Of a DNA stretch of 64,000 nucleotides, positions 3,347 through 60,012 are shown piece after piece (the first letter of the stretch is position 1; each line of letters starts with the position of its first letter). The notes beneath the pieces were generated by a model. That model saw nothing but the letters and a program-made list of their open reading frames with translations. It did no database searches and was not told the DNA's origin. Both the position numbers and the translations under genes were made by a program. The stretch lies in IMG/VR virus record IMGVR_UViG_3300014208_000043, positions 1,690 to 65,689 of that record. The stretch is one strand, 5' to 3'. This stretch comes from a virus (lineage: Duplodnaviria > Caudoviricetes).

Positions 3347-3349
3347 AAA

Positions 3350-7273: not shown

Positions 7274-7425
7274 TGCACCTTCTGTTTTATATTCTTCTGG
7301 TTGTTGTATTAATTATTGTGCGTCCCATATATGCTTTTGTTGCGGCCGTAGTCATTCTTGTGATCTTGAAAATAATTGATGCCTGGAAGCGGCGCAAATT
7401 CAAGAAAGGTCTTTTTCATGGTTGA
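7273..7425 (+). CDS. Small membrane protein, 50 aa
   Basis: Own translation; hydrophobic stretch then basic tail KRRKFKK; SD GGAGG. Confidence 0.55.
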   Translation: MHLLFYILLVVVLIIVRPIYAFVAAVVILVILKIIDAWKRRKFKKGLFHG

Positions 7426-16161: not shown

Positions 16162-16171
16162 GGGGGAAACA

Positions 16172-16519
16172 ATGGAATATCCCGTTGCGGAAATGGCAGA
16201 TCGATACACTATAGCAAAACTAAAGCACGAACGCTTAAATCAGTGTACGGAAGAAATGATTCAGCTATACGCTAGTCTCGGAGACAGGGCGGTTATACAC
16301 GGATTTGAGATAGGGCAGCTCTATGCAATAAATGGCCTTATTTGGGACATGGAGGCCGAGATCCGGCAAGGGGTAATTGGAAAAGAGTCTTACGAAGAGA
16401 TTGGGCGCCGGGCGCTTCTGATCAGACATATGAATAAAAAAAGAGTCGGTGTAAGAAACTTAATAGCCAATATTGAGAAGCAGCCTATTGATGTTAAAGG
16501 AAACCATGCCAGCGAATGA
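16172..16519 (+). CDS. Small helical protein of a type often found in phage glycosylation clusters (DUF6165-like)
   Basis: EMADRYTIAKLK...INGLIWDMEAEIR...MNKKRVGVRNLI. Confidence 0.55.
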   Translation: MEYPVAEMADRYTIAKLKHERLNQCTEEMIQLYASLGDRAVIHGFEIGQLYAINGLIWDMEAEIRQGVIGKESYEEIGRRALLIRHMNKKRVGVRNLIANIEKQPIDVKGNHASE

Positions 16520-17291: not shown

Positions 17292-17950
17292 GTATTGCCC
17301 TACTTGTGCATGCGGGAGATTCTAATGCGTGGGCCTGGCCGCACTTTCTTCGCCATTTTGCAAAATGGTGGGATGCTGATTGCGGGATACCCGTTTACTT
17401 TGCATCGGAAGAGGTTCCAGTGGATCACCCAAGGACAATAAATCTGAAAATAGGCTTTCGTCCGTGGGGCGGGTTTATTCAAAAGGCGCTTCTGAAGATA
17501 CCGGAAGACCATATTCTTTTTATGCACTCCGATTATTTCTTTATAGACCAAATAGATTATTCTCTTTTAAATACCCTTCATAATTTAGCGCATTCAAAAG
17601 ACATTAGGATTCTCAAATGCTGCGGATCCTGGATGGGCTTTGAGAATCCCATGTTTCCCCCAACACAAGAGAATATGGACGGCGTTGAAATGTGGAGATA
17701 CAACAACAAATCCGACTATCTGACATCACAGCAGGAAAGTATTTGGGAAAAGCAAACCCTTTACGATTCCATTCTACCAAGCGAACAGCCATGGTCGGCC
17801 GAAACAAACGGATCTAACAGGCTAAAAGCCCGAAACCCGGACGTTCGCATTTACGCTTACCGAGGCAGACCCCCAGTCCCATACGAGGAAACAATAGGCC
17901 GCGGTCAAATCCGCCCTGGAGCGGAGAAGTATTTTGAGGGAACGAAATGA
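17288..17950 (+). CDS. Putative glycosyltransferase (GT-A-like)
   Basis: LLVHAGD, ILFMHSDYF, SQQESIWEK, PWSAE; within the GT cluster. Confidence 0.55.
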   Translation: MSIALLVHAGDSNAWAWPHFLRHFAKWWDADCGIPVYFASEEVPVDHPRTINLKIGFRPWGGFIQKALLKIPEDHILFMHSDYFFIDQIDYSLLNTLHNLAHSKDIRILKCCGSWMGFENPMFPPTQENMDGVEMWRYNNKSDYLTSQQESIWEKQTLYDSILPSEQPWSAETNGSNRLKARNPDVRIYAYRGRPPVPYEETIGRGQIRPGAEKYFEGTK

Positions 17951-18849
17951 AATTTATTGCAATCTATAAGTACTACAACGCTTCCGAATGGATTGGCACA
18001 TCGGTCGAATCGGTGCTTCCGCTTGTCGATAACGTTTTAATATCATGCCCACAAGTGGACTGGACCGGAAACGGGACGCCTGGCAGCAAAAGCCTTATCC
18101 CTTCCAGCGACAAGGTAAAGACATACGACACCACCAAATCAGATCACAAAAAAGTATATGAAGAGTTAATCGAAAAAGCCATGGATTACGAATGGGACTA
18201 TGCTCTTATCGTTGATGCCGACGAGGTCTGGGCTCCTGAAGGTTTAGCGAAGGCTCTGAATTCAGCAAAAGGCGCGAACACATATAATTGTTTTATGCAC
18301 AGCTACATTAAATCTCCGCTCTACCGGGTGGTGCCTGAAGACGGAAATAAGCCGACCGTTCTTGTTAAGAGAGGCGTACCCTATTCACACGTCAGATGGG
18401 AAAAAGAAAAGCCGGAGTTAATTCAAACCCACCTCCACCACTTCAGCGCGGTACGGAAAAGCCTATATGATGTAATAGGAAAGTTTGACCTATCCAACCA
18501 CGTTGAAAAAATGGCCGGAATAGAATGGTCCGACTGGATAACCGAGGTATGGAATAGGCTTCCCAATGCCGAGAACGTAAATCCAAACCCATTATACAGG
18601 GCAATATGGCCCCATGTAAAAACGGTTCTCCCTGCGGAACTTCCAAGCGTATGCCTATCTAATCAATTAGTCAGGGGTTGGATGGATTTCAAAGATGAAT
18701 GCCCAATTGATTATAAAAAGATTACGCCAGAATTATTAAAACAATTCCGCTTGCCGGAAGACTTTAATGCCGCCAATCCCCTATATAGGCAGCCGTCATT
18801 TAGGTACAAATGGGCGCAATTAATCAAGCACATAACAGAAATGAAATAA
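17947..18849 (+). CDS. GT2-like glycosyltransferase with the same C-terminal tag as the GT6 fusion
   Basis: WIGTSVESV, LIVDADEVW, HLHHFSAVR; tail ELLKQFRLPEDF...QPSFRY. Confidence 0.7.
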   Translation: MKFIAIYKYYNASEWIGTSVESVLPLVDNVLISCPQVDWTGNGTPGSKSLIPSSDKVKTYDTTKSDHKKVYEELIEKAMDYEWDYALIVDADEVWAPEGLAKALNSAKGANTYNCFMHSYIKSPLYRVVPEDGNKPTVLVKRGVPYSHVRWEKEKPELIQTHLHHFSAVRKSLYDVIGKFDLSNHVEKMAGIEWSDWITEVWNRLPNAENVNPNPLYRAIWPHVKTVLPAELPSVCLSNQLVRGWMDFKDECPIDYKKITPELLKQFRLPEDFNAANPLYRQPSFRYKWAQLIKHITEMK

Positions 18850-18881
18850 TTGTTGACATTTGTTAGCAATTAAATTATTTT
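18850..18881 (+). promoter_or_regulatory. Promoter/operator, copy 2
   Basis: TTGTTGACATTTGTTAGCAA; TTGACA, 17 nt, TATTTT. Confidence 0.75.
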
Positions 18882-18887
18882 ATCTCC

Positions 18888-19685
18888 ATGCAGCAAACAC
18901 CAGCAGAAAAACAGAAAGCATTTCGTGGCCGAGCGTGGCCCGGAAAGCTTTGCATCTTCACTGTTGCCGGTGGCCCATATCAAAACTGGGCTCCGCTCTT
19001 TGTCGCCATGGCAAAGGAAGCGTATCCCGAGGCCGACGTAAAGGTTCTGGTCCCAGGAGAAATGACAATTCCGGAAACGCCCGACATAATCTCGGTCGGT
19101 TCTGTTTTGCCAATAGGGCACCCGCTTCTTTGCGCATCATTGCGCTTTCTAATTTGCCCTGAATGGATAACTGGATACGACTATGTTTTGATTACCGATG
19201 CCGACATGATGATTGTTCGGGAGGAGCCCGGAATCGTTTCTCAACACATGATGAGCATGGAGCTGAATGGAACCGAGTGCTATGATAACTGGCTTATGGC
19301 TCCAGGACGGATGCCTGGAATACATTTCGTAACAAGGGAATGGTGGGGTATAACTGATTCGGCAAGACGGAAAGAGACCGGAATGCTCGTAAATCCGGAT
19401 GTGGTTTTAAATATTCAGCCGGCGGACGATGAGAGAGTGCTCCATAGGATAGTTACAAATTCAGGACTTCCCCCTGCCCCGGCTACCGCTCACACATGGA
19501 CGAACCACGGAATACATTTGGGTGCACATAGGAAGTATAATGGCATGTCGCTACAATTAACTGCGCTTGAACAGTCGGCGGCAATTAAGATGGTTAAATA
19601 CGAAGATGAGATTTCCGTTGCTGCGTCAGAATTTCCATGGATCAGAAGATTTGTAAAAGATATAAAGACTGAATTTCATGTATAG
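18888..19685 (+). CDS. Putative nucleotide-diphospho-sugar transferase
   Basis: SLRFL, DYVLITDAD (DxD), GIHFV, DERVL. Confidence 0.55.
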   Translation: MQQTPAEKQKAFRGRAWPGKLCIFTVAGGPYQNWAPLFVAMAKEAYPEADVKVLVPGEMTIPETPDIISVGSVLPIGHPLLCASLRFLICPEWITGYDYVLITDADMMIVREEPGIVSQHMMSMELNGTECYDNWLMAPGRMPGIHFVTREWWGITDSARRKETGMLVNPDVVLNIQPADDERVLHRIVTNSGLPPAPATAHTWTNHGIHLGAHRKYNGMSLQLTALEQSAAIKMVKYEDEISVAASEFPWIRRFVKDIKTEFHV

Positions 19686-19724
19686 GGGCAAAGGACGAAA
19701 GGTTTTCATCCTTTGCAAGTTGCA
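19683..19724 (+). other. Leader site of cassette array 1 (attI-like or half attC)
   Basis: Short hairpin then CCTTTGCAAGTTGCAT; no AAC left core; similar to 57566-57618. Confidence 0.5.
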
Positions 19725-19787
19725 TAAAATCTGTGGTGCAAGGCAGGCCGCACGTCGTGTGCGGCAATACAAAGAAAGGAAAATGTT

Positions 19788-20795
19788 ATGAGTAGCTGGC
19801 ATTCTTATCCAAGTGTCTATGCAATGGGTCACGCCGCGATTTCCGAGTTACTTCTTGACCCCGTTCTTGTCGAAGAAAAAATTGATGGCTCACAGTTTTC
19901 TTTCGGGCGCTTCAATGGTGAATTGAAGGTTCGTTCAAAGGGAAAAGAAATGGATACGGAAGCTCCCGAAAAACTGTTCAAGCGGGCTGTCGAAGCGGTC
20001 AAGGCGCTGGACCTCAAAGACGGTCTGACGTATCGCGGAGAATGTCTGGACAAGCCACACCACAACGCCCTGGTTTACGACCGGACGCCAAAATACAACG
20101 TCATCCTTTTTGACATCAACTCCGAACACGAACAGTATTTAAGCCGGGAAGAGAAAGAAGCGGAAGCCGCCCGCGTCGGCCTTGAAATTGTCCCTATCAT
20201 GTTCCAGGGAAAGATTGAAGATTCAAAAATGGTGCTCGACTTTTTGGAGCGTCAATCCGTTCTTGGTGGTCAGAAAATAGAGGGCGTTGTCATCAAGAAC
20301 TATTCCAGGTTTGGCCGCGATAAAAAGGCGCTCATGGGAAAATATGTTTCAGAGCAGTTCAAAGAGGTTCACAAGAAAACGTGGGGCGAAAGCAATCCGG
20401 CCCAAGGCGATATTCTTATTCGGCTGATAACCATGATGAAAACGGAAGCCCGATGGAACAAGGCGGTTCTCCATATCAACGAACGGGGTGAACTTGAAAA
20501 CTCTCCGCGTGATATTGGAAAATTGATTCTTGAAGTTAAGCAAGACATTCAAAAGGAATGTCAGGATGAAATCAAGGCAGTGCTCTATAAATGGGCAATC
20601 GACCACATAACGCGGGGATGTACGGGCGGACTTCCTGAGTGGTATAAAAAGAAACTGCTTGAAACGCAATTCGGAGCGCCGTCCATGGCGCAAGGCAGCA
20701 CCACAGACTTCATGCAACAAGCGCCAGCACGAAATGGCGGGCAAGAATTGGATTTGAAGAGGCCCGCCACATCGTGCGATCCGGAAGCGCAATAA
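19788..20795 (+). CDS. ATP-dependent RNA ligase-like nucleotidyltransferase (cassette 1)
   Basis: Motif I VEEKIDG, YRGE, ILFD, EGVVIK, GKYV; last ~27 codons encoded by the attC-like site. Confidence 0.8.
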   Translation: MSSWHSYPSVYAMGHAAISELLLDPVLVEEKIDGSQFSFGRFNGELKVRSKGKEMDTEAPEKLFKRAVEAVKALDLKDGLTYRGECLDKPHHNALVYDRTPKYNVILFDINSEHEQYLSREEKEAEAARVGLEIVPIMFQGKIEDSKMVLDFLERQSVLGGQKIEGVVIKNYSRFGRDKKALMGKYVSEQFKEVHKKTWGESNPAQGDILIRLITMMKTEARWNKAVLHINERGELENSPRDIGKLILEVKQDIQKECQDEIKAVLYKWAIDHITRGCTGGLPEWYKKKLLETQFGAPSMAQGSTTDFMQQAPARNGGQELDLKRPATSCDPEAQ

Positions 20796-20836
20796 AATAT
20801 TATGGATTGCGCTCCCGGTGGCGCAACCCGTTGTGT
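20712..20836 (+). repeat. attC-like site 1
   Basis: ATGCAAC, branched stem, GTTGTGT; near copy of 57871-57989. Confidence 0.8.
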
Positions 20837-20860
20837 GTAATTTCGCGACAGGAGTATAAA

Positions 20861-21091
20861 ATGAAGATTATTCTTGCTGGAAACAAAAGGCAGTACGATG
20901 AGTATTGCCGGGGCAACCAACTTCATCCCAGCAATAAGCATTGTATGTATGCAAGAAACCGCGAATGTATTATGGGTCTTGATATTTCAGATTATGCTAT
21001 TGTTGGGACTTTTTGGGATCGCCCCGACTCATTTGAAATTATGGCGGTGGTGCTGGAAAGGCTGTCGCGAAACAACACACAACTCCCGTAA
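20861..21091 (+). CDS. Hypothetical protein (cassette 2)
   Basis: SD GGAG; MKIILAGN...; ends within the attC left core. Confidence 0.7.
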   Translation: MKIILAGNKRQYDEYCRGNQLHPSNKHCMYARNRECIMGLDISDYAIVGTFWDRPDSFEIMAVVLERLSRNNTQLP

Positions 21092-21153
21092 GGTAAAATA
21101 AAAGAAAGATTTGATTTATGGAATCTTTTACTTCACCTTACTAAACGTTGTAT
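21077..21153 (+). repeat. attC-like site 2
   Basis: ACACAAC tccc GTAAGGT...ACCTTAC taaac GTTGTAT. Confidence 0.8.
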
Positions 21154-21210
21154 AAAATGCCATTTGCGCAAATCAAATTAAACGCGGCGTAAAGCCGCTG
21201 AAAGGAAAAG

Positions 21211-21396
21211 ATGGAAGCGTTGAGAAAACTTATTATTGTGACTTTTGGCCTGGCTATTGCAATTTGTTTGAGTATTGTGAATATGATTTATGGATGGGGT
21301 GTTTCTCCGAAATCATGGGGCGTTATAATCGGTGTGGGGTTTTTCGGGCAGGTATTCGCACAAATAATAATGATGATTGGTTCACATAAAGATTAA
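21211..21396 (+). CDS. Two-TM membrane protein (cassette 3)
   Basis: Two hydrophobic helices; SD AAGGA. Confidence 0.75.
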   Translation: MEALRKLIIVTFGLAIAICLSIVNMIYGWGVSPKSWGVIIGVGFFGQVFAQIIMMIGSHKD

Positions 21397-21417
21397 AGGC
21401 AGCGCAAATGGCACTTC

Positions 21418-21524
21418 ATACAACATTTGCCAAGGTGGTTCAGCGCGTTCCCGCGCTTCAACCCAAATGCCGGAACGATTGTATTAGCAGAGTCCGGCAC
21501 TTCACCTTGGCAAGGACGTTGTGT
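21418..21524 (+). repeat. attC-like site 3
   Basis: ATACAAC...TGCCAAGGTG...CACCTTGGCA...GTTGTGT; same family as 23606, 24711 and 58429. Confidence 0.85.
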
Positions 21525-21551
21525 GTAATTTAGCGCGAAAGGCAAAATAGC

Positions 21552-21992
21552 ATGAAGACCGCCGCCGAAGACAATAAAATCAAAGCGTATACCGTGGAAG
21601 ACCCCGACGAAGGTATGGGCGTTATTGTTTTCCATTACTGCGCAAGCAGAGCGAAGGCTCTTGCGTTTTATTATGATGACCATCTTATGGATTTTGCGTT
21701 TGTCGATTTAAAGGTACGGAGAAATAAAGAGGCGGATAAATTTGCAACCAAGGAGCCAAGTGTTTTTGATTTTCAATTACACTCCAAAGAATATCGCGAA
21801 CTTGGTTGGCATTGCCAAGATAGTTCTGTTTGTGATTGGTGTGGGCTTGGAGAATATGATGACATTCCAGAATCAATTGTTTCTGAATATGAAGACGATA
21901 TGGTTTGTAAGGAGTGTCAAGATTTTGAAAAAAGCAAAGGCACGGCGGCGGAAGAAAAAGGCATCGCGCTAAAAAACACACAACTCCCGTAG
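21552..21992 (+). CDS. Hypothetical Cys-containing protein (cassette 4)
   Basis: 146 aa; CDWC...CKEC; C-terminus NTQLP read from the attC core. Confidence 0.7.
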   Translation: MKTAAEDNKIKAYTVEDPDEGMGVIVFHYCASRAKALAFYYDDHLMDFAFVDLKVRRNKEADKFATKEPSVFDFQLHSKEYRELGWHCQDSSVCDWCGLGEYDDIPESIVSEYEDDMVCKECQDFEKSKGTAAEEKGIALKNTQLP

Positions 21993-22051
21993 CGCGAAAG
22001 CCGAAAAATAATGTATAGTGATTTCGGCCATCGCGCTACTATACGTTGTGC
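21978..22051 (+). repeat. attC-like site 4
   Basis: ACACAAC tccc GTAGCGCGA...TCGCGCTAC tatac GTTGTGC; near-identical to 22676-22750. Confidence 0.85.
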
Positions 22052-22101
22052 GAAATCCGGTTGCAATAGCCAAGACGGGCGCAAGACAAAAAGGAGGAAA
22101 G

Positions 22102-22383
22102 ATGAGGAAGTGTGAGCATTTTCATCGAGGGGCATTAGCTTGCAAATTAAGTGGGATGCCGTGCCTTGGTGACGTCCCCAAAAGATGTTTCAGGGTCAAC
22201 ATCGTCGCCACCCCAAAGAAGAGCGCCCGAAAAAAGAGCAACCGGACTTCGCACAACAGCGCCACTAAGGCTCGCAAAGCCTCGTCCCAAACCTTGCGCG
22301 GTTGCCGGAATTGCGGAAGGGCCGTATGTCCAATCGGTGAGTGTATCAACTATTCTAAATGGCAACCGCGCAAGGCTTCTTAG
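22102..22383 (+). CDS. Basic Cys-rich protein (cassette 5), about half encoded inside its attC-like site
   Basis: SD AGGAGG; MRKCEHFHRG...; runs through 22251-22383. Confidence 0.6.
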   Translation: MRKCEHFHRGALACKLSGMPCLGDVPKRCFRVNIVATPKKSARKKSNRTSHNSATKARKASSQTLRGCRNCGRAVCPIGECINYSKWQPRKAS

Positions 22384-22401
22384 TGGCGCGGAACGTTGTG
22401 C
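22251..22401 (+). repeat. attC-like site 5
   Basis: GCACAAC a GCGCCACTAAG...CTTAGTGGCGC ggaac GTTGTGC. Confidence 0.8.
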
Positions 22402-22448
22402 AAAATTTGCCGAAAGACCTTTAAAGGCATCGCGCCAAGAAAGAGAAC

Positions 22449-22709
22449 ATGAGAAGATTTAGACAATTTGATTGGGTTAAACATGGACCACATATTTTAT
22501 CGTTCGGCCCAAGTTACAATAGCCTTGATGAACTTGAAGTGCATTTTTACGAGGGCCACGATCCGGTTATCTTTGGTCCGTATGGTGGAGATAGGAATCA
22601 TTGTAGGGATATAGATTATTTACGTAAAAGAAGATGGGAGCTAAAATCAGGCGCGAAATCATCGGCAAATTCAGCACATAACTCCCGTAGCGCGAAAGCC
22701 GAAAAATAA
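22449..22709 (+). CDS. Hypothetical protein (cassette 6)
   Basis: 86 aa; tail runs into the attC. Confidence 0.65.
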   Translation: MRRFRQFDWVKHGPHILSFGPSYNSLDELEVHFYEGHDPVIFGPYGGDRNHCRDIDYLRKRRWELKSGAKSSANSAHNSRSAKAEK

Positions 22710-22750
22710 TGTATAGTGATTTCGGCCATCGCGCTACTAGAACGTTGTAC
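22676..22750 (+). repeat. attC-like site 6
   Basis: Copy of site 4; left core carries a 2-nt insertion (GCACATAAC); right core GTTGTAC. Confidence 0.8.
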
Positions 22751-22796
22751 GCAAAACCGGCGAAATAGCCAAGAGCGCCGATAAGAAAGGAAAGAT

Positions 22797-23045
22797 ATGA
22801 AGCTAAGAATAATGGTTTTGGTAATGGGCTTATGCACCATTATAGTAGCAAACATGACATGTCGAAAATTAATAGGAGAAAGTTTTTCATCGTTATCTTG
22901 GGTTTCGGGATGGGTTTGTGCTATGCTGTGGTTTGCTATACTGGATGCAATAAAAGAAGAGAAAGAATCGGCGCAATCGAAATCATCGCCGGTTCAGCGT
23001 ACAACTGACGTAGCGCGAAATGGCAAAGCCCGCTGTGAAATGTAA
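22797..23045 (+). CDS. Two-TM membrane protein (cassette 7)
   Basis: Two hydrophobic segments; tail runs into the attC. Confidence 0.7.
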   Translation: MKLRIMVLVMGLCTIIVANMTCRKLIGESFSSLSWVSGWVCAMLWFAILDAIKEEKESAQSKSSPVQRTTDVARNGKARCEM

Positions 23046-23075
23046 GAGGCCACTTCGCGCTACTAAGCGTTGTAT
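22999..23075 (+). repeat. attC-like site 7
   Basis: GTACAAC tgac GTAGCGCGAA...TTCGCGCTAC taagc GTTGTAT. Confidence 0.85.
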
Positions 23076-23136
23076 AAAATGCCATTTGCGCAAATCAAAT
23101 TAAACGCGGCGTAAAGCCGCTGAAAGGCAGGAGAAA

Positions 23137-23583
23137 ATGAGTTCCTTTTCAATCTATTGGCTTATCAAGCTTGATGCTATATCTGATGTTTTGTTTAGTC
23201 TTGGGGTGCTTGGAATTATTGCATTTGTTTTATTGGGTATCGTATGGATGCAGGGGCACGACACAACGGATGATAGGGGCAGGATCATAGGAGATGAAGT
23301 GAAAAAAAGAAGAGAGTCCAGAATGCAAGTAGGCCTAAAAGGTATCCTTATAACCGCACCCGTTTCGGTTTTTCTTTTTATGCTATCCGCGATGGTTCCA
23401 TCCACAAAAGAAATGTGTGCGATAATCGTTGTTCCAAAAATTATTAATGCAGCTTCTGAAAATGAAGCTCTTAAGAATATGCCAAATGTGATTTTGGAAA
23501 CGGCAAACGCCTGGATTCGAGACTTGACCCCTAGCAATGTATCCGGCGGAGTAAAAGACATAATTAAAGAACTTAAGAAATAA
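23137..23583 (+). CDS. Membrane protein (cassette 8)
   Basis: SD AGGAG; IYWLIKLD, TM helices, PSTKEMCAI. Confidence 0.75.
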   Translation: MSSFSIYWLIKLDAISDVLFSLGVLGIIAFVLLGIVWMQGHDTTDDRGRIIGDEVKKRRESRMQVGLKGILITAPVSVFLFMLSAMVPSTKEMCAIIVVPKIINAASENEALKNMPNVILETANAWIRDLTPSNVSGGVKDIIKELKK

Positions 23584-23605
23584 AAGGCAGCGCAAATGGC
23601 ACTTC

Positions 23606-23708
23606 ATACAACATTCGCCAAGGTGGTTCCGGGCAAGCCCGTTCACCCAAATGCCGGAACGATTTTATTAGAAGATTCCGGCACTTCACCTTGGCAAGGC
23701 CGTTGTGT
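23606..23708 (+). repeat. attC-like site 8
   Basis: ATACAAC...GCCAAGGTG...CACCTTGGC...GTTGTGT. Confidence 0.85.
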
Positions 23709-23773
23709 GTAATTTTAAGACGCGCAAGACAATTAAATCAGCGCCCAAGGGCGCAAAACAAGGAGGAGGATGA

Positions 23774-24169
23774 ATGTCAGAGTTCAGAAACGAATTTGAG
23801 GGCTATTTAGGGAAGGGCGCTTTCAAGTTCCTGAAAGTCGCGTCTATCCTGGCAGCGATTTACATTTTATCGGCGCTTGTGTTTGGCTTATTCCCGTTCT
23901 CCGTGGCGTCCGGTGTTGTGAACAAGGTTGTTAATTCGACCGCAATCATTAATAATTATCAGTGGTTTTACGACCAATACAACACCATCCAGGCACAGCA
24001 AGCAAACTATGAATCTGTTCCGGTCGATGCTTACGAGCGAAACGGGATGCGGATGGTGCTCAATAACTCTATCGCTGAATACAATTCCCGGTCAAAACAA
24101 ATAACGCGGAATCTTTGGAAAGCAGATAACCTGCCCTATCAAATCAATTTAATTGGAGGTGGAAAGTGA
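23774..24169 (+). CDS. Membrane-anchored protein (cassette 9, gene 1)
   Basis: TM then NYQWFYDQYNTI...IAEYNSRS; SD GGAGG. Confidence 0.75.
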   Translation: MSEFRNEFEGYLGKGAFKFLKVASILAAIYILSALVFGLFPFSVASGVVNKVVNSTAIINNYQWFYDQYNTIQAQQANYESVPVDAYERNGMRMVLNNSIAEYNSRSKQITRNLWKADNLPYQINLIGGGK

Positions 24170-24690
24170 AAAAGAAAATTTCTGTCCTGCTCGTTTCTCT
24201 CGTGGCTGTTTTTTTGTGCATGGGGGTCGATGATTGCGACGGCAAAACCGGGCGCAACATGGCGGTTAAGAAACAGGAGGAAATGATAAAGGCCGCCGAA
24301 TCAACAATCCCAGTTCCAACCGTATCCTATTTTCAGGAAAAGCGGACAATCACGAAATGGGCAGAGCGATGGGATAAGCCGAGCGTTCCGTCTTATGTTT
24401 ATCTTATTTCATTCGGCAAAGTTCTCGGATATTATGTTGCAGACGGCAAGCCCGCCTCTACACGGTCTTATATTATGCCGGAAGATCAGATTATCGGCTA
24501 TGGCGAAAACCGTGTGGTAACCTCTGCCCCCGACATTGATGGGACTTACGGAGATAATAATCCTGGCATTCGCTTCTTTACCGCTGAAGGTGTTGCTGTT
24601 GAATGGGCCGGGGATGGCGCAAGCTATCTTTATTCAGACGCCTTGATTGATTTCGGATATGAAGTCCCAAGACTTAAAATAAGGAAATAA
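24166..24690 (+). CDS. Secreted or lipoprotein-like protein (cassette 9, gene 2)
   Basis: Signal peptide MKKKISVLLVSLVAVFLC; PDIDGTYGDN..GIRFFT..G..VEW...YLYSD; overlaps gene 1 (GTGA). Confidence 0.75.
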   Translation: MKKKISVLLVSLVAVFLCMGVDDCDGKTGRNMAVKKQEEMIKAAESTIPVPTVSYFQEKRTITKWAERWDKPSVPSYVYLISFGKVLGYYVADGKPASTRSYIMPEDQIIGYGENRVVTSAPDIDGTYGDNNPGIRFFTAEGVAVEWAGDGASYLYSDALIDFGYEVPRLKIRK

Positions 24691-24710
24691 AGAGCGCGTC
24701 TTAAAACAAC

Positions 24711-24817
24711 ACACAACATTTGCCAAGGTGGTTCAGCGCGTTCCCGCGCTTCAACCCAAATGCCGGAACGATTTGATTAGCAGATTCCGGCACTTCACCT
24801 TGGCAAGGACGTTGTGT
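24711..24817 (+). repeat. attC-like site 9 (last of array 1)
   Basis: Near-identical to site 3; ACACAAC...GTTGTGT. Confidence 0.85.
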
Positions 24818-24851
24818 GTAATTTTGTCCGCAAGTGATGAAAAGAGCTAAT

Positions 24852-24898
24852 TCCCCTGGCTAAAGCCACGCGGACAGGTGATGCCGGGGGGATTTTTT
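24852..24898 (+). terminator. Possible intrinsic terminator after array 1
   Basis: TCCCCTGGC...GCCGGGGGA stem with a large loop, then TTTTTT. Confidence 0.4.
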
Positions 24899-24911
24899 AA
24901 AAGGAGTATTT

Positions 24912-25076
24912 ATGGGAAAGAAGATGAATCTTGCATTAAGCAGGCCGATGGAATCGAAAATCAAAAGCGGTAAGCAGAACGTGGAATACGCGAAAACCCA
25001 CGTCAGGATCTTCGGAGAGAAGCCGCTGAACAATTCCGAAGAAGCAAACAAGAAAAAGCGCAACAAAGTGCAATAA
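24912..25076 (+). CDS. Small basic protein, 54 aa
   Basis: SD AAGGAG; own translation MGKKMNLALSRP... Confidence 0.55.
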   Translation: MGKKMNLALSRPMESKIKSGKQNVEYAKTHVRIFGEKPLNNSEEANKKKRNKVQ

Positions 25077-25095
25077 AAAGAAAAGTATTGCAAAA

Positions 25096-25323
25096 ATGAA
25101 AGAAATAATATATGTTTCTGGTATGGTGAATCAACCTGAATGCCCGGAATACCAGTTGGTTAAGAGACCGTCTGGTCACTTCCGGGCGACTTATTTTATG
25201 CTGAAAACATCTTGTCCTGAATGCGGAAGGCCGCAGCACTTAATCATGGGTAAGGCCATTTGCCTAGAGCATGGGTGCCCTGCATATAAGATTCTTTTTG
25301 AATTGGATTGGAAAAGCACATAG
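25096..25323 (+). CDS. Hypothetical Zn-finger protein
   Basis: CPECG...ICLEHGC. Confidence 0.55.
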   Translation: MKEIIYVSGMVNQPECPEYQLVKRPSGHFRATYFMLKTSCPECGRPQHLIMGKAICLEHGCPAYKILFELDWKST

Positions 25324-25331
25324 GGGGAAAC

Positions 25332-25442
25332 ATGTTTGAATTCGAAGAAAGACTCAAGAGAACCATTGCGCTGATTCTTTTCGGCTCCTTCTGGTTTTCC
25401 ATGGGAATTATCGTTACGGTCGCGGTTGTGAATTTAATATAA
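25332..25442 (+). CDS. Small membrane protein, 36 aa
   Basis: SD GGGGG; single hydrophobic helix. Confidence 0.45.
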   Translation: MFEFEERLKRTIALILFGSFWFSMGIIVTVAVVNLI

Positions 25443-25451
25443 GGGGGAGTC

Positions 25452-25928
25452 GTGGGCGAAAAGTATTGTCCGGCAGGGAAGATTGAGTGTGAAAACTATT
25501 TTTGGGACAGTTTCCCAGGATCTCTTGGTGGAAGAGAAAAACAGTGCCCTTTTTGTCATTTTATCGACTATTCCATTATTGGGTTTGAGGTTTGCCCTAT
25601 CCCGTCAAAGCAGAAGAAAATAGAGGATAAGGTGGAAAGGGCTTGGAATATTATGGTCTCCTTGACCCCCGCGTCCCTTCCGTTTTGCTATGAAGCGTTT
25701 TACAAAGCCTGCAAAGATGCTGGATTAAAATATCCCAAAGGAGCAATCGTGGAAAAAATTGACGATAATAGATATCTTTCAGCCAATAAGAACGATCTAT
25801 TTAAGCTGATAGAAAAATTGATATCGGCAGGATTCAGAGAGTCGTCCCAAATGGTTGTCGATAATGAAATATTTGATTATTTTAAGAGAGCCGGATACTC
25901 GGTTAGGATAAAAAAGATAAAAAAATAG
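25452..25928 (+). CDS. Hypothetical protein
   Basis: GTG start with SD GGGGAG; 158 aa. Confidence 0.6.
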   Translation: MGEKYCPAGKIECENYFWDSFPGSLGGREKQCPFCHFIDYSIIGFEVCPIPSKQKKIEDKVERAWNIMVSLTPASLPFCYEAFYKACKDAGLKYPKGAIVEKIDDNRYLSANKNDLFKLIEKLISAGFRESSQMVVDNEIFDYFKRAGYSVRIKKIKK

Positions 25929-25964
25929 CCCAGGCAGTAAGCCATTGAGCCCAGACCGGGCTAG

Positions 25965-25995
25965 CCCCTTGTGCGAAAGCATGAGGGGTTTTTTG
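25965..25995 (+). terminator. Intrinsic terminator
   Basis: CCCCTTGTGC-GAAA-GCATGAGGGG followed by a T-run. Confidence 0.85.
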
Positions 25996-26289
25996 TTTAT
26001 TAGGTACAATTCCCTTTTTCGGGCACTTTTATTCCCCTTAAAATAATGTCCCGTGCGTGTCCCGTACTATGACAGACGGGACAATAGGGGACAATTGGGC
26101 GATTTGTGGTATGTCGGAAAAGCCGGAATACCACATATGGGCAATAGGAAATACTATCGGAATCGTATTGAAGCTATTTCAATACAATTACGATAGTATT
26201 CAGATAGTATTTAGATACGCTTTATACACGCCTAGGACAGTTTTGTCCACGACCTGGACAGATCTGTCCAACGCTATGACATTATTGTC

Positions 26290-26318
26290 TTGACTTTTCC
26301 AATTTTGTAATTTAGATT
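26290..26318 (+). promoter_or_regulatory. Possible promoter of the structural operon
   Basis: TTGACT, 17 nt, TAGATT. Confidence 0.45.
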
Positions 26319-26404
26319 ATACGCATAAGGACGACAGTGTCCAAGAGCCGTATTCGATAGAATCAATGAAATGTTTCTGTGAAACGTAGACAAAAAGAGA
26401 GCGC

Positions 26405-26674
26405 ATGAAACAATCCCCGGTACTCGCAGGCAAGAGGTTTCACCAGGTTATTTGCCGCCAAGAGACGGCAAAGAATCGCATTTGCGGCCAGGTGCTCGGG
26501 TACGTTGAACTCTCTCGCCCCAACACGACGCCCCAGTACTGCCGCCGCTGCAAGCGCATGGAGGCGTGGGACGTGGACAGCGACGGAGCTGTGACCGTGA
26601 CGCTCATTCCACAAGCCGAACGAATCAAAATCTACGACGAGGCTATAATTTTACGGGAGAGAACAGATGGCTAA
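26405..26674 (+). CDS. Small Zn-finger protein upstream of the portal
   Basis: VIC...ICGQVLG...YCRRCK; overlaps the portal start. Confidence 0.55.
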   Translation: MKQSPVLAGKRFHQVICRQETAKNRICGQVLGYVELSRPNTTPQYCRRCKRMEAWDVDSDGAVTVTLIPQAERIKIYDEAIILRERTDG

Positions 26675-56290: not shown

Positions 56291-56322
56291 ATGTTGACAA
56301 TTGTTAGCAATTTGATTATTTT
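56291..56322 (+). promoter_or_regulatory. Promoter/operator, copy 4
   Basis: ATGTTGACAATTGTTAGCAA; TTGACA, 17 nt, TATTTT; followed by ATCATCATGCGAAA as in copy 1. Confidence 0.75.
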
Positions 56323-57117: not shown

Positions 57118-57568
57118 ATACTACACTCCCCCCAGGTGCTACGAGAGCCTTCCTATTGACTGGGGAATGTTTTATTCAGCTCTTGAGCCGGCGGCAGGAG
57201 ATGGAAGGATTGCAAGGTTCCTTACTGGCAAGATTAGGGACATCCAGACATGCGAGATCGACATTGGAATTGATTTCTTTAAGTATGAATGGAAAGGCGA
57301 TCTAATACTCACCAATCCACCATTCTCGCTTTCTTTAGAATTTACTGAAAGGTGCGTAGAGATATCGAATACGTGTATTATGCTTCACCGTCTAGGGTTT
57401 CTCGCATCGCAGGATAGGAAAGATTTCATGAAAGCACATGAGCCGTGCTCCATATATGTTCTTTCTAATAGGCCGTCCTTCACCGGAAAAGGAACCGACA
57501 ATTCAGATTACGCGTGGATTTGTTGGGATAGAACAAACAGATTGCCAAGGGGAATATTTCATATTTAG
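57098..57568 (+). CDS. Compact N6-adenine DNA methyltransferase-like protein
   Basis: YYTPP, ALEPAAGDG (motif I), ILTNPPF (motif IV), YAWICW. Confidence 0.8.
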   Translation: MNSLKDRYYTPPRCYESLPIDWGMFYSALEPAAGDGRIARFLTGKIRDIQTCEIDIGIDFFKYEWKGDLILTNPPFSLSLEFTERCVEISNTCIMLHRLGFLASQDRKDFMKAHEPCSIYVLSNRPSFTGKGTDNSDYAWICWDRTNRLPRGIFHI

Positions 57569-57618
57569 GGGCATGGCCGGATAAAGGGCGAAAACATAAC
57601 GCCCTTTGCAAGTTGCAT
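57566..57618 (+). other. Leader site of cassette array 2 (attI-like or half attC)
   Basis: AAAGGGCG...CGCCCTTT GCAA GTTGCAT; shares motif with 19683-19724. Confidence 0.5.
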
Positions 57619-57669
57619 GCAATTTTGGCCGAAAGACATTAAGAGCGCCGCAAGGCAAGGAGAAGAAAG

Positions 57670-57951
57670 ATGTTAAACAAGCGTGATTGTGGAGCGATTG
57701 CCGCCGCAATGATTGTACGGCAATATTGTGACGAGGCAAATGGTTGTATTGGTTGCGTTTTTGATTTCGATGATAAGAGAGCAGATCTATTACCGCTATG
57801 TCCATTTGCCACAAATCCAAGACACTGGAAGTTTTTAGAAGAAGCGGCGCAAGGCATCGGCCAAAACAGCATGCAACAAGCGCCAGCACGAAATGGCGGG
57901 CAAGAAGATGAGCAGAAGCCCGCCACATCGTGCGATCCGGAAGCGCAATAA
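57670..57951 (+). CDS. Hypothetical Cys-rich protein (cassette B1)
   Basis: SD GGAG; C-terminal MQQAPARNGGQE...PATSCDPEAQ shared with the RNA ligase. Confidence 0.65.
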   Translation: MLNKRDCGAIAAAMIVRQYCDEANGCIGCVFDFDDKRADLLPLCPFATNPRHWKFLEEAAQGIGQNSMQQAPARNGGQEDEQKPATSCDPEAQ

Positions 57952-57989
57952 TATTATGGTCGCGCTCCCGGTGGCGCGGTCCGTTGTGT
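57871..57989 (+). repeat. attC-like site 10
   Basis: ATGCAAC...GTTGTGT; near copy of site 1. Confidence 0.85.
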
Positions 57990-58053
57990 GTAATTTTAAG
58001 ACGCGCAAGACAATTAAACCAGCGCCCAAGGGCGCAAAACAAGGGAGAAGAAA

Positions 58054-58422
58054 ATGGTACAAGAACTTTACGATGACTATGTTGAGGCTAAACGAGCTGT
58101 AAGAGGGGCCGAAGAATGGAACGCCCTCCCTGACGGCCCGATATATGAGTCCGGCGGTAAAATGGATGTTGCAATATCGCACTCTACAGCTCCTATGCTT
58201 ATGCGCATTGGCCAGCAAAATGCCGGTGGGAAAAATTATTGGGAATCTCCATCCGAACTTAATGCGGCAATTCTATATATCCTTGTAAGGGAGCAAGACG
58301 AGATAATAGAAAAGGCCATTTCTTATTTAAAAAGAGAAGAAGAGATGAAGCTTATTAAAGCCCAAAGATTTGTTGATGAGTTGCAAGATAAAATAAACTC
58401 AGTTAAAGGCGGCGCGTCTTAA
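58054..58422 (+). CDS. Hypothetical protein (cassette B2)
   Basis: 122 aa; leader near-identical to the cassette 9 leader. Confidence 0.7.
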   Translation: MVQELYDDYVEAKRAVRGAEEWNALPDGPIYESGGKMDVAISHSTAPMLMRIGQQNAGGKNYWESPSELNAAILYILVREQDEIIEKAISYLKREEEMKLIKAQRFVDELQDKINSVKGGAS

Positions 58423-58428
58423 AACAAC

Positions 58429-58535
58429 ACACAACATTTGCCAAGGTGGTTCGGGCCGTTCCCGGCCCTCAACCCAAATGCGCGAAACATTAGATTTTTT
58501 GAATCGCGCACTTCACCTTGGCAAGGCCGTTGTAT
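58429..58535 (+). repeat. attC-like site 11
   Basis: ACACAAC atttgccaaggtg...caccttggcaaggcc GTTGTAT. Confidence 0.85.
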
Positions 58536-58766: not shown

Positions 58767-58820
58767 ATACAACTAGCAAAGCACGGCGTTTCACTGCCGT
58801 GCATTTGCCGGACGTTGTGT
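58767..58820 (+). repeat. attC-like site 12 (54 nt)
   Basis: ATACAAC ta GCAAA-GCACGGC...GCCGTGC-A-TTTGC cggac GTTGTGT; one extrahelical base. Confidence 0.85.
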
Positions 58821-58875
58821 GTAATGCTGTCCGAGATAGCCGAAGAGTGTGCGCAATACAAACGAGGAGAATGGC

Positions 58876-59085
58876 ATGAAAATTCTAATGTTTGAAAATG
58901 TTGACTTTTACGAATTTAGATTTGAAGGGAAAATAGCTAGAATGTATGAAAGGCAATATGTCCAAGACAGGGCAAAACAGATGAACGATAATAAGCCAAA
59001 TGCTTTTTTAGATGCCTTTAGGAAAGAAATGGGGTTCAGGAATATAGGAGCGCGCACGGAATCGGGCAGCACAACACACAACTAG
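58876..59085 (+). CDS. Hypothetical protein (cassette B4)
   Basis: SD GAGGAG; MKILMFENVDF...; stop just inside the attC. Confidence 0.6.
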   Translation: MKILMFENVDFYEFRFEGKIARMYERQYVQDRAKQMNDNKPNAFLDAFRKEMGFRNIGARTESGSTTHN

Positions 59086-59129
59086 CAAAGCACGTAGTTT
59101 CCACTACGTGCATTTGCCGGACGTTCTAT
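59076..59129 (+). repeat. attC-like site 13 (54 nt)
   Basis: Same family as site 12 with a compensated inner stem (GCACGTAG/CTACGTGC); right core GTTCTAT. Confidence 0.85.
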
Positions 59130-59185
59130 GCAATACAACCGCCAAGGCAAAGAAAAGAGCGCGCCCTAAGAAAAGACAAAGCAAA

Positions 59186-59944
59186 ATGAAACCATATTAC
59201 GAACACGCCGGAATCACAATCTATCACGGAGACTGCCGGGAAATTTTAATTCAGCTCGCCCCGGATTCCGTGATAACAGACCCGGTTTGGCCGAATGCAA
59301 GGGTTCCGCTTTTCGGACAAAAAGACCCGTTCGGAATGATGCGGGAAATGGTCGCAGTCCTTGCCGATTCTTGCAAGCGCCTTGCCGTCCATCTTGGCTG
59401 TGATAGCGACCCGCGTTTTTTAAGTTCTGTCATGCCCCTGGTTTTCCCGTTCTTCCGTGTGGTCTGGTTTGAATATGCTCGGCCACATTATAAAGGGCGT
59501 TTGATGTACGGCTCTGATGTCGCTTACCTTTTCGGCATCCCGCCCAAATCCCGGAAAGGCGCACATGTTATTCCGGGTAGGCTCATTGATGCGGATTCAA
59601 GCGGCCGCCAATCAGACCACCCGTGTCCTCGTAAAATAGGTTTTGCAAAATGGCTCGTTAATTGGTGGAGCGATTTGAATGATTTGGTTTGCGACCCATT
59701 CATGGGGAGCGGAACCACATTGGTTGCGGCCAAACAATTAAACCGGCGAGCAATCGGAATTGAATACGAGGAAAAATACTGCGAGGAAGCGGCCCGGCGT
59801 TTAAGCCAGGAAGAATTATTCGGAACGGGCGCGCAAGACCAAAGGCAGGCGGTTGTACAGCATAGAACAAGCGCAAGGGCAAAAGGCACGGAAGAATTGA
59901 ATTTGGAGCCGTGCCCTTCGCCCGCCCCGGACGCGCTTAAATAA
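59186..59944 (+). CDS. Beta-class N4/N6 DNA methyltransferase (cassette B5)
   Basis: IYHGDCRE, VITDPVW (DPPY-like), HPCPR, VCDPFMGSGTTLVAAKQLNRRAIGIE; tail encoded by the attC. Confidence 0.9.
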   Translation: MKPYYEHAGITIYHGDCREILIQLAPDSVITDPVWPNARVPLFGQKDPFGMMREMVAVLADSCKRLAVHLGCDSDPRFLSSVMPLVFPFFRVVWFEYARPHYKGRLMYGSDVAYLFGIPPKSRKGAHVIPGRLIDADSSGRQSDHPCPRKIGFAKWLVNWWSDLNDLVCDPFMGSGTTLVAAKQLNRRAIGIEYEEKYCEEAARRLSQEELFGTGAQDQRQAVVQHRTSARAKGTEELNLEPCPSPAPDALK

Positions 59945-59980
59945 ATATGGAATGCGCGTCCGGTTGCGCATCCGTTGTCC
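59862..59980 (+). repeat. attC-like site 14 (last of array 2)
   Basis: ATAGAAC aa GCGCAA...TTGCGC atcc GTTGTCC; branched like sites 1 and 10. Confidence 0.8.
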
Positions 59981-60012
59981 GACATTGAAACGTCGCACAA
60001 CAAGAAAGTAAA

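Follow-up and report, generated by a model that had tools for sequence, protein, structure and literature searches.

Two integron-like gene cassette arrays in the complete genome of a tailed groundwater phage

Clusters of integron attC sites without an adjacent integrase (CALINs) are already known from phages, where 17 of them, virulent phages included, were reported by Qi et al. 2023 (PMC9892861), who also noted a methyltransferase in phage cassettes; the attC sites of phage TJE1 were validated with IntI1. Mobile regulatory cassettes termed PeSL (promoter-early stem-loop) have been described in T4-type phages (Arbiol et al. 2010, PMC2839356; Comeau et al. 2014, PMC4122927). PeSLs are promoter-containing direct repeats that act by homologous recombination. 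In the dif/pdif modules of Acinetobacter plasmids (XerC/XerD sites), inversely oriented sites of ~25 bp bracket genes and are served by a host recombinase in trans; the pdif arms are conserved protein-binding sequences flanking a 6-bp centre and act as duplex DNA.

The DNA analysed here (the window; 64,000 nt, to which all positions refer) belongs to an IMG/VR record of 65,689 bp, whose direct terminal repeats, estimated completeness of 100% and genes for portal and the large and small terminase subunits uphold the description as a complete phage genome. This groundwater phage of 65.7 kb carries 14 small promoterless genes, split over two arrays. The stretch was present without change in two groundwater runs from separate studies (2018 and 2022), which excludes an assembly artefact. 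In comparison with five relatives, where the flanking genes adjoin each other, array A is an insertion.

An array at 19718-24817, delimited by hairpins of 74-151 nt, had been put forward in the earlier note, and all of its coordinates and motifs were recovered in the sequence. Array A comprises nine cassettes of 213-1016 nt with sites of 125, 77, 107, 74, 151, 75, 77, 103 and 107 nt, the G of R' being located at positions 19719, 20830, 21147, 21518, 22045, 22395, 22744, 23069, 23702 and 24811. Its parts and the promoter upstream are the following:

18853..18881, + strand: sigma-70-like promoter (TTGACA, 17 nt, TATTTT; 10/12 matches) within a 72-nt repeat present in three copies
19683..19718, + strand: leader; short hairpin, then TTTGCAA directly before the first GTTG, without a CAAC left core
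19719..20718, + strand: cassette A1, RNA ligase; ORF 19788-20795 runs on into its own site
20712..20836, + strand: site A1, 125 nt, type C, translated; 90% identical to site B1
20830..21083, + strand: cassette A2, 76-aa ORF
21077..21153, + strand: site A2, 77 nt
21147..21424, + strand: cassette A3, 61-aa ORF; 5' and 3' chassis same as A8
21418..21524, + strand: site A3, 107 nt, type A, three-way tip
21518..21984, + strand: cassette A4, 146 aa, phrog_9207
21978..22051, + strand: site A4, 74 nt, type B
22045..22257, + strand: cassette A5, ORF continuing into its own site
22251..22401, + strand: site A5, 151 nt
22395..22682, + strand: cassette A6, 86 aa; 3' core with 2-nt insertion
22676..22750, + strand: site A6, 75 nt, type B; 60 nt identical to A4
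22744..23005, + strand: cassette A7, 82 aa
22999..23075, + strand: site A7, 77 nt
23069..23612, + strand: cassette A8, 148 aa, phrog_3878
23606..23708, + strand: site A8, 103 nt, type A
23702..24717, + strand: cassette A9, two ORFs (131 and 174 aa); chassis same as B2; near-unchanged copy in an unrelated biofilm run
24711..24817, + strand: site A9, 107 nt, type A
24811..24900, + strand: last unit, degenerate and ORF-less; 5' chassis, partial 3' partner, no CAAC; a terminator-like hairpin with T-run follows and closes array A

Array B (57612-59980) holds five cassettes with sites of 119, 107, 54, 54 and 119 nt:

56294..56322, + strand: sigma-70-like promoter repeat upstream of array B, same repeat family as 18853..18881
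57566..57611, + strand: leader, motif as in the leader of array A
57612..57877, + strand: cassette B1, 93 aa; tail encoded by 3' chassis and site, as in A1
57871..57989, + strand: site B1, 119 nt, type C
57983..58435, + strand: cassette B2, 122 aa
58429..58535, + strand: site B2, 107 nt, type A; 42-nt hairpin module 95% identical to a site of phage G002
58529..58773, + strand: cassette B3
58767..58820, + strand: site B3, 54 nt, type D
58814..59082, + strand: cassette B4
59076..59129, + strand: site B4, 54 nt, type D; aberrant R' GTTCTAT
59123..59868, + strand: cassette B5, N6/N4 DNA methyltransferase; start GTTCTAT, end ATAGAAC, covarying at core position 4
59862..59980, + strand: site B5, 119 nt, type C
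59974..60001, + strand: terminal mini-hairpin (GTTGTCCGAC, 8 nt, GTCGCACAAC) directly before the DUF1064 and terminase genes

Both arrays begin with the leader motif TAGGGGCA...hairpin...CCTTTGCAA|GTTGCAT, the stems of which are compensated; the leader of array A is a candidate attI-like landing site. At the far end of array B, the mini-hairpin at 59974..60001 is an empty pair of cassette ends closing the array. One strong promoter-like repeat lies upstream of each array, and the promoter at 18853..18881 likely drives the operon holding array A. A promoter scan revealed no comparable sigma-70-like promoter inside the array, in agreement with the promoterless units reported before.

As in attC arrays and CALINs, the cassettes are co-directional, promoterless and mostly single-ORF, their boundaries are imperfect hairpins starting with ...AAC and ending with GTT..., each cassette has the complement of its own 3' core, and the sites are built of R stem, unpaired spacer, L stem and variable tip. 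A methyltransferase in the cargo and the lack of an adjacent integrase are shared with the phage CALINs. With nine and five cassettes, the arrays exceed the two-site minimum that has been published.

The match of 7-nt cores within each cassette, as claimed in the earlier note, was reproduced exactly (13 of 14 own-cassette matches versus 2 of 14 within the hairpin), the exception being A6 with its 2-nt insertion, which was indeed seen in the 3' core. None of 100,000 partner permutations reached 13 own-core matches (p<1e-5). The signal exceeds the claim, with complementarity extending to about position 22, compared with 6-7 nt in the classical attC model. Every cassette has its own terminal inverted repeat of 20-24 nt, in which GTTG and 5 variable nt are followed by a mismatch fixed at 2 nt (positions 10-11) and by a box of 10-13 nt that is unique to the cassette. 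Over positions 8-22, own ends gave 11-13 matches out of 15; non-own pairs averaged 4.7 and in-array hairpin partners 4.6. An end-pair scan, comparing 22 nt from GTT with the reverse complement of the 22 nt ending in AAC at a threshold of at least 18/22, yielded 14 pairs in the window, namely 13 of the 14 cassettes and one cross pair of the twin chassis A3/A8; A6 was absent because of its insertion, and ten shuffles gave 0-1 hits.

The 3' ends of A1 and B1 are 87% identical; the differences, which lie mostly in the box, are compensated in either cassette by its own 5' end. In B5 the covariation reaches core position 4 (GTTC/GAAC), confining the crossover to C-G-T-T. Across the 24 tabulated cassettes from two phages, all stems were compensated, position 11 had A in the 5' arm opposite C in the 3' arm without exception, which corresponds to bottom-strand G:T, and top-strand totals amounted to 30 A.C versus 2 G.T. 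Since about 22 nt are complementary and the box is unique to each cassette, the pattern is not merely the passive footprint of a G|TT crossover; of the IntI footprint suggested before, the own-end core rule thus stands and the passive footprint as sole cause does not. The own-end complementarity has to reflect selection for a stem that would form anew once the cassette is excised.

The sites, arranged as ...CAAC, short spacer, stem, simple or three-way tip, longer spacer and GTTG..., measure 54-151 nt across both arrays; published attC sites span 57-141 bp, branched tips being known from chromosomal integrons (PMC5027507). DNA folding, which the earlier note had advised for the bottom strand, revealed that in 13 of 14 sites this strand is more stable than its complement, the mean advantage being 2.5 kcal/mol in array form and 2.7 kcal/mol in circle form, with 3.2 G:T pairs versus 0.14 on the top strand (Wilcoxon p ~0.001). 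The same kind of strand bias has been described for attC sites (Nivina et al. 2016, PMC5027507), and the bottom-strand preference together with the G:T excess is an integron signature that argues against mRNA structure. Unlike in attC, the core is GTTG plus Y-rich bases, with 0 of 16 R' cores fitting GTTRRRY; canonical extrahelical bases were not seen in the folded sites, where the sole bulge (B3, B4) sits on the bottom-strand arm carrying AAC, and the spacer is asymmetric (0-5 versus 4-7 nt; canonical, 5-6 nt per arm). No tyrosine recombinase is encoded in the complete 65,689-bp record. Given this, the deviating cores and the lack of canonical extrahelical bases, a classical IntI as the enzyme is not supported. 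Further differences from attC arrays and CALINs are the phage-gene cargo, the re-used leaders and trailers and a conserved tip motif, CCCAAAT...hairpin...ACTTC, which is common to three phages. In contrast to pdif, the arms are cassette-unique, so that they cannot serve as a sequence-read signal, and adjacent modules are separated by a large hairpin.

The integron-like anatomy and the cassette modularity described earlier were both supported, the breakpoints of the modules lying at GTTG both in the genome and in an unrelated biofilm run. Between A9 and B2, chassis identity begins one base before GTTG, next to unrelated upstream hairpins. Biofilm run X3, from another study, carries cassette A9 with 2 differences in ~320 coding nt, and the rest of the compared stretch 18800-26700 (array A and flanks) is absent from it. 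The similarity ends directly after GTTG, at 24814, and the hairpin that follows A9 in this run has 12 changes, the first lying 3 nt beyond CAAC. Hairpin modules reassort separately from the cassette chassis, the A3 hairpin being nearer to that of A9 than to that of its chassis twin A8. Such reassortment is not what G|TT exchange on the bottom strand alone would predict, and it calls for gene conversion or a second point of crossover. Neither excised circles nor deletion variants nor reordering turned up, and both runs with the phage have the same array. The cargo is phage-type (RNA ligase, DNA methyltransferase, PHROG families of unknown function), and the same leaders, with ribosome-binding site, and trailers recur with unrelated ORFs between them. 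More than 100 phage homologues of the A1 RNA ligase match residues 1-295 only; the tail is 3' chassis and site sequence and differs in a relative of 85% identity, a pattern of gene capture.

The same architecture was found in four other uncultivated phages with GC contents of 34-55%, the cassettes of which differ from one phage to the next. G002 has 11 cassettes and a portal 42% identical; L050 has at least three, in the same location upstream of the portal; G006 has 1-3; and G007/L064 (117 kb, GC 34%) has one. The background of the end-pair scan was about five chance-like hits in ~1.5 Mb of other phage DNA, and the scan gave nothing comparable in phage TJE1 with its published CALIN. No tyrosine recombinase was present in G006 or G007; the integrase that G002 carries 2.5 kb downstream is of an ordinary phage type and, by NCBIfam, not an integron integrase. 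We conclude that the cassette system is real, integron-like and phage-type, and it looks like a gene-swapping system belonging to the phages themselves. The novelty claimed before was worded too strongly, phage attC clusters as such having already been published (Qi et al. 2023, PMC9892861); new are this architecture and the fact that several phages share it.

The two arrays are probably of the integron type, CALIN-like in that no integrase accompanies them in cis, and are part of a complete tailed-phage genome; their attC-like sites would act as folded single-stranded DNA, with a recombinase supplied in trans. Each boundary would be such a site, preferentially of the bottom strand, in which the R stem (...CAAC with GTTG...) would be followed by the asymmetric unpaired spacer, the L stem and a tip that varies and frequently forms a three-way junction. 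Strand exchange would take place inside the four bases C-G-T-T, so that GTTG from position 4 onward would belong to the downstream cassette; one bond among these would be cleaved. The excised cassette, presumably a circle, would re-form the 22-bp R stem from its own two ends, including the fixed G:T wobble at position 11. The promoterless cassettes would be transcribed from the sigma-70-like promoter upstream of each array. The recombinase, probably a tyrosine recombinase acting in an IntI-like manner, would come from the host or a co-infecting element, and the system may well be active today. Nothing of the kind named in the earlier note as speaking against its reading was found.

Recombinase-free, structure-directed shuffling, in which the phage's own recombination proteins anneal repeated hairpin modules (40-140 nt) between co-infecting phages and cores and own-end stems serve otherwise, e.g., in cruciform cutting or replication stalling, is unlikely. 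It would suit a genome that has no site-specific recombinase but does have a recombination module (exonuclease 1197-2180, endonuclease VII-like 2696-3346, RecT-like annealase 3350-4570, SSB 4570-5028), to which G002 adds a Cas4-type exonuclease, as well as hairpin families that are repeated at 88-100% identity inside the genome, are partly common to other phages and reassort independently of the chassis. It leaves unexplained the unique compensated 22-nt stem with its fixed G:T at position 11 and the chassis identity from GTTG beside unrelated hairpins (A9 versus B2), and the cores common to all sites, 4-5 nt, are below annealing length. We regard it as very unlikely that the arrays are punctuated at the RNA level, with own-end stems pairing cistron ends in a polycistronic early transcript (RNase III-type processing or stabilising stems), hairpins as processing signals and modules shuffled by homologous recombination in a PeSL-like manner. 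The stems of ~22 bp with an internal mismatch do match RNase III substrates in size. Leaders and trailers re-used around unrelated ORFs would fit as well, and PeSLs are a precedent for regulatory repeats shuffling phage ORFs (PMC2839356, PMC4122927), the likeness extending to repeated intergenic elements around small accessory ORFs, hyperplastic phage regions, modular shuffling and genes in early-type operons. The antisense strand, however, folds better by 2.5-2.7 kcal/mol, wobble pairs average 0.14 in the sense strand versus 3.2, and selection on mRNA would give the reverse of the 30 A.C versus 2 G.U-type positions of the sense strand. Moreover, unlike PeSLs, the boundaries have no promoter, a conserved core of 4-5 nt and own compensated inverted ends per unit; no Rfam family matched, and the invariant CAAC/GTTG around each hairpin would have no role.

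Little credence is given to fossil arrays, assembled elsewhere (e.g., in an integron of a bacterium or archaeon), taken up as blocks and no longer active in the phage. The missing integrase in cis, the same array in groundwater runs of 2018 and 2022, the degenerate last units of both arrays and the chromosomal-integron fragments known in phages (Qi et al. 2023, PMC9892861) are in line with such an origin. Against it stand the phage-type cargo (the RNA ligase with its >100 phage homologues, the methyltransferase, the PHROG families), the presence of two arrays in one genome and of arrays with different cassettes in four other phages, and the 24/24 compensated stems, which imply continuing selection.

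Array A (19719-24817) was read from the sequence as nine cassettes and array B (57612-59980) as five, with the cores located by script. The cassette arrays described in the earlier note were confirmed: the hairpin lengths it gave were those measured, the 5' core of a cassette is the reverse complement of that cassette's own 3' core in 13 of 14 cases, the sole exception (A6) being caused by a 2-nt insertion, and the cores match within the hairpin at only 2 of the 14 sites. Upon permutation of the core partners, 0 of 100,000 trials reached 13 matches (p < 1e-5). The triplets AAC (R'') and GTT (R') flank an imperfect hairpin at all 14 sites in the window and at 10/10 sites of G002, another uncultivated phage with a like array. 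The R' cores seen were GTTGCAT, GTTGTGT, GTTGTAT, GTTGTGC, GTTGTAC, GTTCTAT and GTTGTCC, and 0 of 16 R' cores fit the RRRY part of the extended consensus RYYYAAC/GTTRRRY. The sites are close together and co-oriented, with no integrase nearby, as in a CALIN (a cluster of attC sites without an integrase), this being a likeness in spacing, orientation and lack of an integrase.

An assembly artefact was excluded by sequencing-run contigs. Terminators were dismissed as an explanation of the sites, T-runs being absent except at the end of array A, and so were known RNA families, as an Rfam search of the sites matched no family. The hairpins were too heterogeneous for consistent MAFFT alignment, the result being structurally inconsistent.

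The core rule could be refined, since complementarity exceeds the 7-nt core: every cassette carries a terminal inverted repeat of 20-24 nt, as seen by aligning the first 40 nt of each cassette to the reverse complement of the last 40 nt. The repeat consists, in this order, of GTTG, five variable bases, a 2-base mismatch and a cassette-unique box of 10-13 nt. In one class the 5' arm has AA at the mismatch and the 3' arm CA, AA or CT; in a second class the mismatches are A.C, at positions 8 and 11. Over positions 8-22, own ends (the 5' and 3' ends of one cassette) match at 11-13 of 15 positions and non-own pairs at 4.7. Scanning the 64-kb window for such end pairs returned 14 pairs, namely 13 of the 14 cassettes and a cross pair of A3 and A8, which share a twin chassis (leader and trailer around the cassette ORF); shuffled sequence gave 0-1 pairs, about five chance-like hits came from some 1.5 Mb of loci in other phages, and TJE1, a phage with a published CALIN, gave 0.

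Each site was folded as DNA in an array form, comprising the cassette 3' end, the hairpin and the 5' end of the next cassette, and in a circle form, in which the 5' end of the cassette itself takes the place of the last part. The circle form was 10-20 kcal/mol more stable than the array form (mean about 15) and revealed a single architecture throughout, in which a small internal loop separates an outer stem of 10-13 bp from the R stem (9 bp, NNNNNCAAC pairing with GTTGNNNNN), and a second, asymmetric loop separates the R stem from the L stem, which carries the tip. The tip is a simple loop in hairpin types B (A4, A6) and D (B3, B4) and a three-way junction in types A (A3, A8, A9, B2) and C (A1, B1, B5). 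The bottom strand was found to fold more stably than the top in 13/14 sites, with a mean advantage of 2.5 kcal/mol for array forms and 2.7 kcal/mol for circle forms, and with 3.2 G:T pairs on the bottom versus 0.14 on the top strand (p about 0.001). In the end stems of the 24 tabulated cassettes of two phages, an A on the 5' arm at position 11 always faces a C on the 3' arm, and the sense-strand totals were 30 A.C versus 2 G.T.

For attC sites, a more stable bottom strand, G:T mispairs of 1.24 versus 0.39, a layout in which a central spacer (5-6 unpaired nt per arm) lies between R box and L box and a variable tip follows, a length range of 57-141 bp and, in chromosomal integrons, branched tips have been described (Nivina et al. 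2016, PMC5027507). The present sites fit in their order of R, spacer, L and tip and in their length (54-151 nt); the spacer is asymmetric, the R'' side having 0-5 nt and the R' side 4-7 nt, and one G002 site lacks it. In the MFE predictions, no extrahelical bases were seen on the arm opposite the bottom-strand AAC, where mismatches are symmetric or absent, and the sole bulge (B3, B4) sits on the bottom-strand AAC arm. In comparison with attC, the GTTRRRY consensus, a symmetric spacer and, in these predictions, canonical extrahelical bases were not seen. Conversely, an own-end stem of 22 bp with a wobble at a fixed position, conserved motifs in the tips, translation of the sites and re-use of chassis have not been described for attC.

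In all cases the five variable bases that follow GTTG travel with the downstream cassette, B5 covaries even at position 4 (GTTCTAT with ATAGAAC), and the spacer preceding GTT travels with the hairpin. This places the exchange point within C-G-T-T, a window compatible with the integron crossover G|TT named in the earlier note. A9 and B2 have leader and trailer in common from the base before GTTG onward, and the hairpins upstream of them (type A versus type C) are unrelated. Cassette A9 is also covered by contigs of a biofilm metagenome from another study (run X3). There, the coding part shows 2 differences in about 320 nt and the hairpin 12, the first of them 3 nt past CAAC; similarity stops at 24814, the final base of GTTG, after which other sequence follows. 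The remainder of the compared stretch 18800-26700 (array A and flanks) is uncovered in this run. As the contigs are of low depth, this is one supporting case and not proof. Another run (X4) yielded distant matches only, from other organisms. An apparent deletion joint from 23763 to 24694 was rejected as a cross-match of B2, whose chassis is that of A9.

The phage record comprises 65,689 bp with direct terminal repeats (estimated completeness 100%; the window is bases 1690-65689) and occurs in two groundwater metagenomes, each of a different study. Every long ORF is on the + strand, and the following features were assigned in the window:

1197-5028, + strand: recombination module of exonuclease, unknown ORF, endonuclease VII-like protein, RecT-like annealase and SSB
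7677-19685: glycan-building island of 12 kb, with two epimerases/dehydratases (one of them PseB-like), two methyltransferases, glycosyltransferases of families GT2 and GT6 and a radical SAM enzyme
26667, + strand: portal, P22-like
60.7-63.4 kb, + strand: terminase, small and large subunits

A like epimerase/methyltransferase/glycosyltransferase block lies upstream of the terminase in TJE1. A 72-nt element containing TTGACA, 17 nt, TATTTT and a small ORF start occurs in three copies (317-388, 18839-18910 and 56280-56351); these are probably early promoters heading three operons, two of them with cassette arrays. Relatives L017, L018 and L011 have genes 17947-18849 and 18888-19685 fused into a single ORF (564-785 aa), and in the present phage this promoter-like repeat falls exactly at the split.

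A tyrosine recombinase (PF00589) was searched for in the whole 65,689-bp record and in G006 and G007, two further phages with like cassettes, and no match was obtained. The arrangement of a complete integron, intI (a tyrosine recombinase with the IntI-specific extra domain) beside attI and Pc, was not found; a leader motif common to the arrays and a promoter upstream are present. The 265-aa gene upstream of array A was dropped as a recombinase candidate, relatives having it fused to the preceding glycosyltransferase-like gene. In G002, a 399-aa phage-type integrase (phrog_1, E 1e-25) is encoded 2.5 kb downstream of the array; it matched no NCBIfam model, that of the integron integrase included, had no close relatives in IMG/VR and no solved relative by sequence, and is probably a lysogeny integrase. 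The lack of PF00589 matches in three phages together with the phage type of the G002 enzyme implies that a recombinase is not a constant partner in the lineage and, if the arrays are active, must act in trans.

Related contigs were reached via portal homologues by protein alignment, and the phage behind contig L064 (G007; 117 kb, GC 34%) via its RNA ligase. G002 is a complete phage of 61.8 kb with a 42% identical portal and a GC content of 55% versus 47% here; its array of 11 cassettes follows the same grammar on the early strand. Contig L050 has at least three cassettes where array A sits, between a homologue of gene 18888-19685 and the portal, G006 has one clear and two degenerate cassettes, and the L064 phage has one. 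In five relatives without arrays, the genes flanking array A adjoin each other, identifying the array as an insertion; an empty landing site was not found at the syntenic position in the array-less relatives. No cassette ORFs common to the arrays of the present phage, G002 and L050 were found. A 42-nt sub-hairpin is 95% identical between this phage and G002, and a CCCAAAT...hairpin...ACTTC motif occurs in both and in L050. A small L050 ORF at 2980-3174, flanked by a promoter-like site and the array's first cassette, looks by eye like a helix-turn-helix excisionase/MerR-type protein.

The closest portal relatives were P0002 (68%) and P0003 (62%). GenBank phages gave no match to the array DNA or the portal, single-protein scans of viral contigs with the array-upstream gene and with the portal found nothing, and exact-pattern scans for the hairpin motif returned only G002 itself and a chance match in a coding region of an unrelated phage (L001). 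Among species-representative genomes, the sole contig with a portal relative, L062, carries no cassettes and therefore gives no host clue; this 23.5-kb contig is binned in a Bathyarchaeia (archaeal) MAG and may be a mis-binned phage contig.

The cargo is phage-type. A1 encodes an RNA ligase of 335 residues with homologues in more than 100 IMG/VR phages; nearly all of these matches end at residue 290-300, and the coding sequence for the final ~40 residues lies in the 3' chassis and the hairpin. The same tail is carried by B1, an unrelated 93-aa protein, and a different one by the RNA ligase P0019 of another contig, which is 85% identical to A1. B5 is an N6/N4 DNA methyltransferase, and several further cassettes belong to PHROG families of unknown function. 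Cassette ORFs at several 3' ends (e.g. 21077-21091 and 21978-21992) cross CAAC and stop in the spacer or hairpin, so that the site sequences are partly translated; the read-through gives tails ending in NTQLP in A2 and A4 and the long shared tail of A1 and B1. In A3/A8, A9/B2 and three G002 cassettes, unrelated ORFs are set between re-used leaders and trailers. Modularity therefore exists at two levels, that of the cassette and that of the ORF inside its chassis.

If the boundary structures acted as punctuation in the mRNA, wobble would be expected on the sense strand. The reverse is seen, wobble lying on the bottom strand, which argues against selection for mRNA structure; this explanation is further weakened by boundaries without promoters and by the absent Rfam match. 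Shuffling through annealing, carried out by the exonuclease and the RecT-like and EndoVII-like proteins that the phage encodes, accounts for the independent reassortment of hairpin modules and may operate beside a site-specific process; it leaves unexplained both the compensated cassette-specific stems and the core breakpoints beside unrelated hairpins. The phage-type cargo and the compensation intact in 24/24 tabulated stems make it unlikely that the arrays are fossils. The promoter-early stem-loop (PeSL) cassettes known from T4-type phages are analogous in function and differ in mechanism (PMC2839356, PMC4122927): their boundaries are direct repeats, each with an early promoter and a stem-loop, whereas no promoter-like boundary site is present here and the boundary hairpins fall into at least four unrelated families.

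Among known systems, integrons and CALINs come closest and share their logic with the present arrays, and the own-core rule, the bottom-strand fold bias and the core breakpoints support, at the level of sequence, the integron-like reading put forward in the earlier note. Its claim of novelty for an array in a phage goes too far in its wording, as CALINs have been reported in temperate and virulent phages; phage attC sites were tested there in an integron-integrase recombination assay, and IntI1 recombined the CALIN sites of TJE1 (Qi et al. 2023, PMC9892861). We tentatively consider, at somewhat less than an even chance, that the arrays could be the phages' own cassette-exchange system apart from bacterial integrons. 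Its site would be bipartite, combining a hairpin module from a small shared set with a cassette-specific 22-bp stem that has a fixed G:T at position 11 and forms only when own ends meet; a non-IntI recombinase would be supplied in trans by only some phages or hosts, and the cassettes would come from a common pool. Were this the case, unrelated phages (GC 34-55%, 60-117 kb) would obtain from this pool not only accessory and anti-defence genes but even the C-terminal tails of proteins.

Phage genomes are mosaic, and the mechanisms moving single accessory genes between phages are poorly known. A site-specific, integron-like system that has a site grammar of its own and lacks an integrase in cis would offer a testable route for phage gene trade, including that of methyltransferases and RNA-repair enzymes, and would extend folded-DNA recombination sites past classical attC, with bearing on integron biology and phage genome plasticity. 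The C-G-T-T window, the position-11 G:T and the own-end stem are fixed features open to bench tests, and the cargo provides candidate host-takeover or counter-defence genes.

Outside the arrays, a giant ORF of 2708 aa (47692-55818), whose first 1000 residues had no PHROG hit, has counterparts in G002 (54% identity over 917 aa) and in G006 (39%). Tandem 12-nt repeats (AGGAAGAGGATC / AGGAAGAGGTAA) were seen at 63905-64000, within an ORF leaving the window end. In L064, a tmRNA (6958-7318) with the tag peptide AEDYSFAEMLKVA follows immediately after the RNA ligase gene.
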